Below, in pieces: positions 7,774 to 23,736 of a stretch of DNA of 64,000 bases (within the stretch, counting starts at the first letter, position 1; the number at the start of each line of letters is the position of its first letter). Under the pieces are notes generated by a model. The model had not been told where the DNA came from and ran no database searches. It saw only the letters and a list, made by a program, of their open reading frames with translations. Origin of the DNA: Octopus vulgaris (taxonomy: Eukaryota); contig OX597834.1 in NCBI GenBank assembly GCA_951406725.2, positions 15,500,001-15,564,000 of the forward strand, in the 5' to 3' direction. The position numbers were made by a program, and so were the translations under genes.

Positions 7774-7775
<2 letters not shown>

Positions 7776-7814
7776 GTCGTAAGAGTGGCTGTGTGGTAAG
7801 TAGCTTGCTAACCA
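7774..7814 (+). mobile_element. SINE family A, 5' head piece left of the LINE insertion
   Basis: gagtggctgtgtggtaagtagcttgctaacca; the rest of this SINE resumes at 10057. Confidence 0.8.
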
Positions 7815-8514
7815 CACATGCGCAGTTAGTCGGTTGCTTCCTGTTGAGCTAGAGTGGACGTGAGTAACAAGCTCCTTCCAACTAAAGAAAAAAGACCAAA
7901 AACGGAAAGTTGTCGAGGTAAGTGATTTTGTTTATTGTGAGTTGGGCATAATTTATTGCGTGCCAATTATTATTTCAGTAGGTTGTGTCCAACTCTGAGA
8001 CAATTTCGCCTGCGCTAGGCGGCTGCCGTTTTTGTGTTCATTGAAAAAAAAAAAAAAAGAAAAAACAGTGGAGGGGCGTATCCTCAGAATTCAATACAGT
8101 TACTGTTAAAATCACCGTTGGCGGTAGCCAGTGCTGTGTTTGGATTTGTTGAATTTATTCCCTTGTCAGAGTACTTCGCAAGAAAAGTATAAAAATAAGC
8201 CACTATTGGATTACCTTTCGGACCTTTTTGTGGAGGTTGTGTTGCAGTTGCGGTGTTCCAGGTTCAACCCAGGCCGGGAGTACCGCAAGGCCAGAATATT
8301 TTTGCTGTGGTTTTTTCTGTTTATTAACTTTCTTTTGAACTTCATTTACCCCCCCCCCTTTTGTTTTTTCTTTATTGCGACTTTCCGTTAATTTCTTCCC
8401 TTCTGTTGTGCTTTCTCCTTTTTGTTTTTTCAAAAATCTATCAAATTTATTTAGACTTTTGAACTTTTTTCTTCCTGCTTTTGAGTCTAATTTGAATATA
8501 TTTTTTAAAAAAAC

Positions 8515-9759
8515 ATGGCAATGAAAAATAACAAAGTTTTGGAGTGGGAAATCATACCACCCAAAAAGTGGTTGAAGGACCGTGAAGATAGGACGGTGGT
8601 GTTGAGAACCTACTCCAAGGCACTTGACACCATCGCCCTATTCGAAAAGACGGCAATTGAGGAGGAGTTGGAGGAGTATTTGCCAACAATTAAATTCATT
8701 TCCAGGGGTGTCAAATATGGAACGGTGTGGTTGCTGTTTGACACCCCTGAAGAGGCTTGCAAATTTGCTAGCGAACCCTTGGAGGGTAAGGAAATCTTAT
8801 TCCTGCCCACTTACAAAAAAAAGAAATTGATGAAAGCTTGGATCTGCGGACTGCCACCCGACATAGAACCCGAGTGGATAGAGGAGACTATCCGCCGGGG
8901 TCTGGGTGACAGCGAAACTAAGCTCCTCAATGTAAAAGTTCTTCCTGCGGCTGCTTGGGTTGGCTCGAAAGCAGTTTTGACCCTGTGGACCCAATCAGCC
9001 AATCTGGTTTTTCCAGATTTTTTGAAAATGGCCGGGTGCAGGTACCCGGTGATGCTTGAGGGTCGCCCCCCTAAGTGTCATCGGTGCTTGGAGTCCGGCC
9101 ACATAAAGAAGAACTGTCCTCGGGAACAAAATAGGATCCCGGAACAGGTAAGTAAAACCCCTCTAGAAGAGGGAACGATAACGGCCGAGAAAGCAGAGGA
9201 CTCCTCAAGCAGAGGCCGAAAGAGGAAGGTGAGCAACAATGGGTGCTCACCAAAGGATAATAGGGATGAGGAGAGGAGGGCGAATCTTCCAGCCACGGAG
9301 GAGACGCACCCTCCCTCAGTTGAAAAGGGAAAAAAAAAGAAAAAGAGGAAGAAAAACGGGACGTTGCCGGCTGTCAGTGTGGCACCGGAATGTCGCGGAA
9401 CTACGTCGGTTGGGGTTGTGCCACCGACAAGAGAAGGAATACCGTTGACGGAAACTGTGCCGCCAACGAAAGAACTGAATGTATTGGTCCTCTTCTATAG
9501 AGGAGGAGAAATTGAAAAAGTGATGGAAGAGCACTACAAGGGAGCACCTTTAGCCTTCACACAGGACCCCGAATGGCCTCCGCAGGTAGCTGTGGAGGCC
9601 GTGGCGTTCGACGTGACGCTAGGGCTAAAGGAGCTCAATGAAGACTATAACTTGGTCCCGGGCGACGCGAACTCGGAACTTGACTACGTTCTGAGGGAGG
9701 CGGGGTTGATGGTGGAGGGCGCGGGCACAAGCTATTTCGAGGACGATATGTATTATTAG
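8515..9759 (+). CDS. LINE ORF1p/gag-like nucleic-acid-binding protein (RRM-like regions, CCHC zinc knuckle, basic low-complexity C-terminus)
   Basis: Intact, GC-richer 414-aa ORF with CHRCLESGHIKKNCP (CX2CX4HX4C), RRM-like GTVWLLFDTPEEA and AWICGLPPDIEPEWI segments, and a basic KKKKKRKK stretch. Confidence 0.85.
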   Translation: MAMKNNKVLEWEIIPPKKWLKDREDRTVVLRTYSKALDTIALFEKTAIEEELEEYLPTIKFISRGVKYGTVWLLFDTPEEACKFASEPLEGKEILFLPTYKKKKLMKAWICGLPPDIEPEWIEETIRRGLGDSETKLLNVKVLPAAAWVGSKAVLTLWTQSANLVFPDFLKMAGCRYPVMLEGRPPKCHRCLESGHIKKNCPREQNRIPEQVSKTPLEEGTITAEKAEDSSSRGRKRKVSNNGCSPKDNRDEERRANLPATEETHPPSVEKGKKKKKRKKNGTLPAVSVAPECRGTTSVGVVPPTREGIPLTETVPPTKELNVLVLFYRGGEIEKVMEEHYKGAPLAFTQDPEWPPQVAVEAVAFDVTLGLKELNEDYNLVPGDANSELDYVLREAGLMVEGAGTSYFEDDMYY

Positions 9760-9884
9760 TAATGGACTTAAGTCCAAAAATTGAAAAATTGTAAGAGGAT
9801 TAATACCTCGTTTTGTATTAATAATGGACTGCTCAGCCCAAAATTGGAAAAATTGTAAGAGGTTTAATACCTCGTTTTGTGTTA
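9760..9884 (+). repeat. Two ~62-bp tandem repeats directly after the ORF1 stop codon
   Basis: taatggact...aaaattg.aaaattgtaagagg.ttaatacctcgttttgt.tta occurs twice. Confidence 0.9.
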
Positions 9885-10056
9885 ATCTTTTTTAAAAAGA
9901 ACAATGTTTTAGAGAAGCAAAAGTCGGCGGGCGCTTTCTGTCTTCTCCCATCCTTATCATCTTTCTTTCATTATCATTCACCTCATTAATGTCCTCGTCC
10001 AGCCCGCAAAGCTAACTTAATCTGTGTACTGCCTTTATGGCAAATGTTTTGAAATA

Positions 10057-10206
10057 AAGTAGCTTGTTTACCAACCACATGGTTCCGGGTTCAGTCCCAC
10101 TGCGTGGCACCTTGGGCAAGTGACTCCTACTGTAGCCTCGGGCCGACCGAAGCCTTGTGAGTGGGTTTGGTAGACGGAAACTGAAAGAAGCCCGTCGTAT
10201 ATATGT

Positions 10207-10637: not shown

Positions 10638-11235
10638 GAGGCGCGTGGCTTAGTAGTTAGGGTGTTAGACTCATGATCGTAAGATTTCTGTTTCGATTCT
10701 TCGACTGGGCGACGCAAGTGAGAGAAAGTTGTGGCGAAAGAGTCAGCAGAAGTTCGCCATTACCTTCTGCCGGAGCCAGGTAGAGCTTAGGTGTTTCGCT
10801 ATAGTGAGGGCGCGTGGCTTAGTGGTTAGGGCATTCGGCTCATGATCGTAAGGTTGTGAGTTCGATTCCCGGCGACGCGTTGTGTCCTTGAGCAAGACAC
10901 TTTATTTCACGTTGCTCCAGTCCACTCAGCTGGCAAAAATGAGTTGTACTTGTATTTCAAAGGGTCAGCCTTGTCACTCTCTGTGTCACGCTGATTATCC
11001 CCGAGAACTACGTTAAGGGTACACGTGTCTGTGGAATGCTCAGCCATTTGCACGTTAATTTCACGAGCAGGCTGTTCCGTTGATCGTATCAGCTGGGACC
11101 CTCGTCGTCGTAACCGGCGGAGTCTTTTTAAAGGAGTTTCGCTCATAAACACACACACACATCACCCGGTCTGAGATTCGAACCTGCTCTAACCACTAGA
11201 CCATGTGCCTCCACCACTAGGCCATGTGCATCCAC
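10638..11235 (+). mobile_element. Nested SINEs, including a near full-length family B copy (10807-11125) with a CORE-like domain
   Basis: A box gtggcttagtggttaggg, B box gagttcgattccc, then tgtgtccttgagcaagacactttatttcacgttgctccagtccactcagctgg; family-C-like pieces on the minus strand flank it. Confidence 0.8.
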
Positions 11236-22635: not shown

Positions 22636-23736
22636 CATCAAGCACAGCAACATAAAAATCTTTGCAGATGATTCCAAGCTACAGAAGGTCATAAATGAGG
22701 CGAGTGACCGGACATGCCTTCAGTCAGATCTACTGGCTGTTATCCAATGGGCAGAAAAAAACAATATGCTGCTGAACGAGGATAAATTTGAGTTAATCCA
22801 CTTTGGAAAAGAGGATGCCCTGAAACTCCCATACTCCCTTCCTTCAGGTGAAACTCTCGTGGCGTCCAACAACATCAGAGACTTGGGAGTAATTGTGGAC
22901 AACAACATAAGCTGGGCCACTCATATAAACACCACAGTTGACATGGCCCGCAGAATGTGTTCCTGGATTCTCAGAACTTTCCAGTCGAGAGATATCCACA
23001 CCATTATCCTTCTCTTCTCCACTTTTGCCCGACCCCACCTTGAATACTGTTGTCCACTGTGGTCTCCCCACACAATACAAAGTATCATAAAGGTTGAAGC
23101 ACCTCAAAGGGAAATCACAAAAAAGATAGATGGCATGACAGGCCTCGACTATTGGGGTCGACTAGAAAAGCTAAAACTTTATTCTCTCCAACGTCGTCGT
23201 GAGCGCTACATCATCTGCATGATGTGGAAAATATTCCATCAGCATTGCCCAAATGATGTTGGCATCACCTTTAAGGTACATCCAAGGCTTGGGCCCCGTG
23301 CTATCCGTCCAAAACAAAAATCGCACTCTCATCTCATAACAACAATACGGCACAATTATTTCACCTCAATTGGCCCCGCCCTCTTTAACATTACACCAAA
23401 ACACATTAAAACAGAAACTGACCCTATTGGGTTCAAGAAGTCTTTGGACAGATTCCTTCAAGAAATCCCGGATAAACCCCCTACACCCGGATATGTCTCT
23501 GTAAACAATACCTCTCTGCTCGAATGGGCCTTGGTGCCCAAATCCTGAACTGAAAGACTTCGCCAAGTGGTGCTATTAAGTTAGACATGGCCTGGGCCAA
23601 TACTGGCCAAAACATTTCTAAGTTATTCTAAGTTATTTATGTATAGATCTATATCTATTAATTTATCTATATATATATAGACATGGCCTGGGCCAATAAT
23701 GGCCGAAACCTATCAAAGTATCAAAGTATCAAAGTA
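22636..23736 (+). mobile_element. 5'-truncated CR1-like LINE: RT C-terminus, 3' UTR and a duplicated 3' terminus
   Basis: In-frame IFADDSKL...QSDLLAVIQWAEKNNMLLNEDKF...RDLGVIVD...RPHLEYCCPLWSPH...LYSLQRRRERY to the stop at 23548; tails (ttctaagtta)n and (tatcaaag)n. Confidence 0.9.

Follow-up and report, generated by a model that had tools for sequence, protein, structure and literature searches.

An intact ORF1-only non-LTR retroelement at a fixed SINE base in Octopus vulgaris, likely mobilized in trans by a complete L1-type element of the same base

Introduction

Mammalian HAL1 (half-L1) elements are non-autonomous, L1-type retroelements that encode only ORF1p and have had more than one origin, according to the accessible part of PMC5753468. 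The octopus element described here resembles HAL1 in being ORF1-only and multicopy and in carrying no ORF2 remnant. It differs in being confined to one SINE base, in stacking, and in an ORF1p with two predicted RRMs and a CCHC knuckle, whereas no sequence-specific target is mentioned for HAL1 in that part of the report. In Dictyostelium, the ORF1-only element TRE5-A.2 is moved in trans by the ORF2p of the full element, while its ORF1p acts in cis; its structured 3' end is essential, and it is targeted near Pol III genes (PMC3159450, available text). The same text describes TRE5-A.2 as a deletion derivative of its helper that inserts upstream of tRNA genes through a proposed contact between ORF1p and TFIIIB. 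Unlike TRE5-A.2, the octopus element has an ORF1p only 28% identical to that of its putative helper and is inserted at one base inside a SINE head. HeT-A of Drosophila is also ORF1-only and site-restricted and forms head-to-tail arrays with complete relatives, but it belongs to the Jockey clade, resides at telomeres, and has a Gag that is phylogenetically indistinguishable from that of TAHRE (10.1101/445429, accessible portion), whereas the octopus ORF1 is far from its helper's.

Among target-specific LINEs of the Tx1 clade, Tx1 is found in Tx1D, Keno in U2, and crocodilian Tx1-Mar is accompanied by SINEU passengers (PMC4494074), while Mutsu is found in 5S genes (PMC5340908). With these the octopus system has in common a two-ORF LINE of ~5.5 kb on a multicopy repeat, passengers that share the target, and tandems around a duplicated target. 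The targets named in the available portions of these sources are DNA transposons, LTR elements, snRNA or 5S genes, and microsatellites, but not a SINE, and the crocodilian SINEU passengers are non-coding (PMC4494074), whereas the octopus passengers code for ORF1. A repeat annotation of octopus counts 13 L1-Tx1 families as recently active and, in its accessible part, leaves targets and ORF1 unmentioned (PMC13282606). Our literature search found no SINE-targeting LINE and no account of this octopus system, and the available portions of PMC8967140, PMC4758252, PMC9004415, PMC8869645, and PMC5035012 added nothing on either; Repbase, subscription papers, and supplements lay outside its scope, and Repbase or the supplements and repeat library of PMC13282606 may already list these families. 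Precedent exists for each single trait (HAL1, HeT-A, TRE5-A.2, Tx1/Mutsu), and the octopus element is set apart by its SINE target, its deep split from its helper, and its element-borne copy of the target.

Results

An ORF1-only insert splits the head of a SINE

The window is a 64,000-nucleotide stretch of the O. vulgaris genome (assembly GCA_951406725.2, contig OX597834.1, positions 15,500,001 to 15,564,000, forward strand). Within it, the head of the host SINE stops at 7797 and the rest resumes at 10057, past an insert of 2,242 bp that lies between two 17-mers; in undisrupted copies of this SINE elsewhere in the window, the two halves are directly joined. As the initial annotation had proposed, the head is split between its A and B boxes, with A-box-like TGGCTGTGTGG at 7787-7797 and B-box-like GGTTCAGTCCC at 10088-10098. 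The features of the locus, all on the forward strand, are listed below.

7781..7797 (+), 5' portion of the head of the host SINE, which contains A-box-like TGGCTGTGTGG and agrees with uninterrupted copies elsewhere in the window
7798..7814 (+), 5' target copy; ~8-10 bases at its start probably come from the target, and the remainder (..CTAACC) is element-borne
7815..8514 (+), 5' UTR of 700 bp with a putative internal promoter; a 5' module of which several interchangeable kinds occur
8515..9759 (+), ORF1, 414 aa; full length (412-414 aa) in 14/30 copies
8593..9057 (+), two predicted RRM domains, residues ~27-98 and ~104-181 (AlphaFold2, Foldseek, ESM Atlas)
9076..9117 (+), CCHC zinc knuckle, residues 188-201; conserved
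9754..9886 (+), short direct duplication at the start of the 3' UTR, ~62-bp period, 87% identical (self-comparison)
9912..9947 (+), predicted 3'-UTR hairpin, retained in most ORF1-only families
10002..10007 (+), GCCCGC, predicted to pair with the hairpin loop; 6 pairs, none changed on both sides
10009..10018 (+), short segment with complementarity to the top strand of the target; 6 exact bases in this copy (by itself weak, P = 0.19) and 7-10 in the majority of relatives
10030..10042 (+), terminal stem-loop TGCC-N5-GGCA, also present in the complete element and likely the signal recognized by ORF2p
10053..10058 (+), AATAAA at the 3' junction; overlaps the target, no poly(A)
10057..10073 (+), 3' target copy, the host SINE's own sequence (GTTTACC subtype)
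10057..10197 (+), remaining host SINE head and body, with the B-box-like motif at 10088-10098

The two 17-mers (7798-7814 and 10057-10073) have 2 mismatches, as had been described, but they are not a pure target-site duplication (see below). The AATAAA taken as the 3' end is present at 10053-10058, but it overlaps the first two target bases and is not followed by a poly(A) tail. No endonuclease or RT was detected in the insert, in agreement with the initial annotation, and LTR-element features were likewise lacking, with no terminal repeat on self-comparison and no pol. The initial annotation had described the 414-aa ORF as the sole long intact non-repetitive ORF with its own start in the window; one other non-repeat ORF that starts with ATG was found at 22766-23548 (260 aa), and by eye it resembles a C-terminal fragment of a LINE RT. 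A long minisatellite at 41227-42643 carries repetitive open frames on both strands.

The tRNA-likeness of the host SINE head consists of A- and B-box-like motifs only, seen by eye; no tRNA was detected by ARAGORN in the window or by Rfam in an intact host SINE copy. Searched against Rfam, the element itself matched no ribozyme or tRNA, the other matches being TA-repeat noise. Beyond a TA repeat the host SINE resumes and continues to ~10585. Directly behind it lie two heads of a second SINE family (10640-10700 and 10808-10960), and one of them gave a sub-threshold Rfam tRNA match at 10810-10879 (25.1 bits). In one of four runs presumed to be RNA, a 2,083-nt contig spans 7805-9883, which is not evidence either way on expression.

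ORF1 encodes a predicted RRM-RRM-CCHC protein

Mammalian L1 ORF1p has a coiled coil-RRM-CTD architecture. The octopus ORF1 is uninterrupted from 8515 to 9759, and the RRM-like segments and CCHC knuckle first read from its translation were supported by structural comparison and by the CCHC motif, respectively. With an 11-row alignment, AlphaFold2 folded residues 12-206 with moderate confidence (pLDDT of ~67-88 across the predicted RRM part) into a model with two RRM folds, the remainder not being folded; Foldseek matched the model to tandem-RRM proteins (best, hnRNP A1 UP1; E = 4.8e-5), and the look-alikes from the ESM Atlas carry zf-CCHC and ZCCHC3 RNA-binding domains. Pfam gave only a weak zf-CCHC match to the knuckle at residues 188-201 (E = 0.0077, short of the curated cut-off). 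The closest named relative was an Octopus sinensis protein (64% identical), and more distant ones came from Octopus and Argonauta. The first 70 residues of one O. sinensis gene model (P0002) correspond to this ORF1 and are fused to an integrase fragment, which is probably an annotation artefact. Compared with ORF1 of the complete element described below, identity was 28% over 196 aa (E = 6e-23), which indicated homology to the ORF1 of L1-type LINEs. The element is not a HAL1 in the strict sense of mammalian L1 origin, as its ORF1p is predicted to have two RRMs and a CCHC knuckle and its genome is that of an octopus.

The family is multicopy and ends at one base of the SINE

A DNA search in which the best 40 of 3,309 candidates were scored yielded at least 29 full-length copies that were 95-100% identical. 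In the 30 best copies fetched, the 3' junction was identical throughout (30/30), and the 5' neighbour was the SINE head in 27 and a related ORF1-only element in 3. The element's last 17 bases, which can be counted without any assumption about the target, occurred 225 times in the genome and were followed by AAAGTAG in 219 cases (reversed controls, 0); three exceptions among the first 100 3' ends listed were two SINE sites with one altered base and one chance 17-mer. The proposed family with a SINE landing site was thereby confirmed at single-base precision, with 219/225 exact 3' ends at the SINE target rather than at random sites. Nor do all other copies carry ORF2: neither ORF2 nor a remnant of it was seen in any of 145 short units. 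Empty exact SINE sites numbered 79,241 (31,566 of the TAAC subtype and 47,675 of the TTAC subtype), and the filled-site pattern had 649 matches.

In eight 5'-truncated relatives (L042, L053, L075, L212, L222, L224, L226, and L230), the junction with the SINE head has 0-15 duplicated bases and, mostly, microhomology. These eight copies are independent insertions, and the fixed 3' end, the 5' truncations, and the variable short duplications are together those of target-primed reverse transcription. Four of the truncations (L075, L212, L222, and L224) start a few bases at most from the 5' foot of the 3'-UTR hairpin, and their tail families differ; microhomology with the target may explain this clustering, the alternative being a nuclease-resistant or self-cleaving RNA end.

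Tandem stacking was also observed, with 37 of 177 units directly behind another element and runs of as many as seven motif hits spaced 2 kb apart. A 105-bp, internally deleted, non-coding derivative (L132) occupies the same site with both ends kept. A Gypsy-type pol ORF upstream of one ORF1-only copy (L079:1-3270, an uninterrupted 1,090 aa) and ORFs of 258 and 324 aa in L042 and L054 were set aside as unrelated neighbours.

A complete L1-type element shares the target base and the 3' end

The initial annotation had called for a search for an autonomous, ORF2-bearing relative, and one that shares both target and 3' end was found by way of ORFs with endonuclease and RT domains in element arrays. 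This complete element measures 5.45 kb and encodes ORF1 and an endonuclease-RT ORF2 (Pfam: EN, RVT_1, and zf-RVT). A protein search gave 87 matches from 86 scored candidates, most of them 97-99% identical. In 39 of 40 fetched loci, the 3' junction lay at the same SINE base, and the 5' junction was visible in 36; 14 had a whole ORF2 (1,126-1,133 aa), and in 3 of these ORF1 was whole as well. The exact 3' end of the complete element occurred 109 times, half the corresponding count for the ORF1-only family. In these loci (L091-L130), ORF1 was broken more often than the longer ORF2 (both whole in 3 of the 14 with a whole ORF2), for which the choice of loci by ORF2 together with homopolymer errors may account.

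The nearest solved structure to ORF2 was human L1 ORF2p (E = 1e-66), with R2 at 2e-19, and an ORF2 with APE endonuclease, RT, and zinc domains that is nearer L1 than R2 assigns the complete partner to the L1/Tx1 group. With the Tx1 clade it shares a sequence-specific target in a multicopy repeat; no named Tx1 protein was among the ORF2 hits listed. A sister LINE family (reached from L032) was rejected as the helper, given its different 3' end and different targets; its ORF2 is 65% identical to the helper's, and stem-loop and SINE target are absent (19 of 20 loci printed). This two-ORF family (L191-L210) ends in TAATAAAG and forms 5.28-kb tandem arrays. Several of its copies stop just ahead of another LINE's start, with endonuclease ORFs following in L193, L201, and L202, and two (L192 and L207) lie inside ORF1-only elements.

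The insert and the putative helper have only the last 37 nt in common (78% identical), a shared 3' end of the kind expected of a passenger moved in trans. The stem within this segment occurs as TGCC/GGCA, CGCC/GGCG, and TGTC/GACA; 55 of 56 cells were paired and two of the four pairs had changed on both sides, a covariation signal that comes from a 4-bp stem and that kinship can inflate. The stability of the whole 3'-end fold was not above that of shuffles (z = 0.33). Further upstream, the 3'-UTR hairpin (9912-10007 with its partner) has a stem that varies but keeps pairing and a near-invariant loop, which can pair 55 nt downstream with 10002-10007 in a predicted pseudoknot. This hairpin was not seen in the tails of complete elements and had no match in Rfam; twister and HDV-like readings of it were dropped after comparison by eye with the consensus.

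The 5' target copy follows the element rather than the host SINE

The mismatch between the two target copies had been tentatively ascribed to recombination between copies in different SINEs. Instead, the upstream copy tracked the element type at 108/108 loci: it was TAAC in three 5' types (57/57, 25/25, and 6/6) and TTAC in the fourth (20/20), even though 24 of the 108 lay in a host SINE of the other subtype. The 108 are the single-unit loci of four types, 13 of 121 (two small types, unclassified or short units) having been left out, and the "A" 5'-type class includes some related T-type starts. The second half of the 5' copy follows the element type and not the host SINE, which explains the two mismatches at the present locus; recombination is not needed. 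At four loci (L002, L115, L155, and L177) a rare variant is common to both sides, so the version of the target sometimes wins. An element-borne 5' copy would fit a mechanism in which the cDNA end, being target-like, anneals to an overhang of the top strand.

A further possibility is that RNA-DNA pairing, through the target-like 5' end of the RNA and the complement in the 3' UTR, guides or verifies the site and is as important as the endonuclease for the choice of target, which would add to trans-mobilization by the complete element rather than replace it and which we regard as possible but unlikely. Start type matched host subtype beyond chance (77/96 versus 6/21; Fisher P = 1e-5), the TAAC subtype making up 40% of the 79,241 empty sites, but the match could reflect age, since older copies are mostly in TTAC SINEs and copies are not independent draws. 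The complementary motif AGCTA(C) was kept in position, 41-48 nt from the end in 14/15 main-clade ORF1-only tails and ~80 nt from the end in 3/4 complete-element tails, and was found in 0/8 sister-family tails; however, it was also missing from both tails of a second ORF1-only type (0/2), which nevertheless sit at the target site. In the 29 tails tested for complementarity to the target, single-tail P values were modest, at 0.005-0.37 (0.19 for this copy).

The ORF1-only elements form an old clade, with purifying selection on the ORF1 core between families

The 177 units, cut out between target motifs, comprised at least five ORF1-only types, among which 5' UTRs, cores, and C-termini have been exchanged. 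Related 5'-UTR starts (CTTCGTC.. GACGTG) were present in complete L104, L125, and L128 and in ORF1-only L031, L032, L065, and L084, which suggests that 5' modules may be exchanged between helper and passenger. The proposed dN/dS comparison was made on the ORF1 core between families (A-B, 0.20/2.08; A-C, 0.24/1.39; A-D, 0.23/1.2; C-D, 0.08/0.29) and gave ratios of ~0.1-0.3, which are rough, dS being mostly >1 and near saturation. The ORF1 core is under purifying selection between ORF1-only families, and part of this signal could stem from an unsampled ORF2-bearing ancestor. The two classes of private variants in 12 intact copies (18 N and 16 S) did not give a clean neutral ratio.

Since dS within the ORF1-only clade exceeds 1 whereas the SINE copies are 7.6% apart, the clade probably had an earlier target. 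This age contrast, together with the entry of Mutsu into 5S genes ~20 nt in (PMC5340908, accessible portion), would suit a true target in a tRNA or other Pol III gene for which the SINE is a look-alike sink. We consider that improbable, because every flanked copy fetched was in a SINE or behind another element and none was in a recognizable tRNA gene.

Another improbable account is that the ORF1-only elements are recent, repeated deletions from ORF2-bearing parents that were unsampled or lost, ORF1 having been conserved while in those parents. The loci screened for such a parent were 32 long units plus another 20 sites, short of the whole genome. Moreover, ORF2 loss can recur: a second ORF1-only type (L227, 2.2 kb, and L064, a 1.5-kb unit; two decayed copies seen) has a helper-like tail and an ORF1 that groups with the helper's on a long branch, and it probably represents a separate loss of ORF2. 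Against recent deletion, however, the ORF1 tree (19 rows, midpoint root, old copies as single pieces) split the 14 ORF1-only rows, O. sinensis protein included, from both complete families at 100/100, and the ORF1s of 31 ORF2-length units were only 28-35% identical to that of this copy, the one long unit at 97% (L050) being an ORF1-only copy behind an unrelated SINE. The 20 further sites, which have unusual tails, held one ORF2 fragment, with ORF2 behind 0/10 ORF1 hits, and the families share a 3'-UTR structure that was not seen in complete elements. With ORF1 only 28% identical to the helper's, the ORF1-only elements are not deletion copies of the helper but an old clade.

At 24 young loci, inserts were 1.9% and SINE halves 7.6% apart. 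That SINE and insert hitch-hike as a composite, the shared site being one old insertion copied often, is very unlikely and largely refuted: insert and SINE distances were weakly correlated (Mantel r = 0.29, P = 0.03) and TAAC-start elements are mostly in TAAC SINEs (77/96), but insert pairs 0.2-0.4% apart lie in SINE halves 0.7-7% apart and of differing subtypes, truncated copies have their own 5' junctions within the SINE, and the same base is home to the complete element as well as to at least five families of ORF1.

Discussion

The locus very probably holds a young and still intact ORF1-only non-LTR element at a fixed SINE base, likely mobilized in trans by the complete L1-type element of the same base. 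A Pol II transcript would be driven by the 5' UTR and coated in cis by its own ORF1p, which would be the reason the gene is retained. The ORF2p of the helper would then bind the 3' stem-loop, and its endonuclease would nick the bottom strand at GGT^AAGTAG and prime reverse transcription. A second nick at most ~15 bases downstream would leave an overhang to which the cDNA end could anneal. Full-length RNAs, which start with a piece of the target, would anneal in register; their own version would usually prevail, the site would be rebuilt, and further elements could enter rebuilt sites to form chains. In such a scheme, helper ORF2p would have to function with a very distant ORF1p (28% identical).

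It is conceivable, although we hold it doubtful, that this APE-type LINE and its ORF1-only parasites pick and rebuild their site by means of their own RNA, with the 5' target copy and the 3'-UTR complement pairing with the SINE. If so, targeting in an L1-type element would be RNA-assisted, pairing would be readjusted whenever SINE subtypes shift, and a parasite whose ORF1p is 28% identical would outnumber its helper two to one in a three-tier system of SINE, LINE, and half-LINE.

The system makes a SINE a further landing site known for sequence-specific LINEs. With ~79,000 empty exact sites and ~650 filled, the SINE offers a large, harmless niche, and each insertion parts the SINE's two promoter boxes. 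More than 100 natural events, in which marked 5' ends meet marked targets, make the formation of 5' junctions readable. A compact L1-type enzyme with single-base specificity may be a candidate for targeted-insertion work, and a young, intact pair of helper and passenger bears on why half-LINEs keep ORF1.
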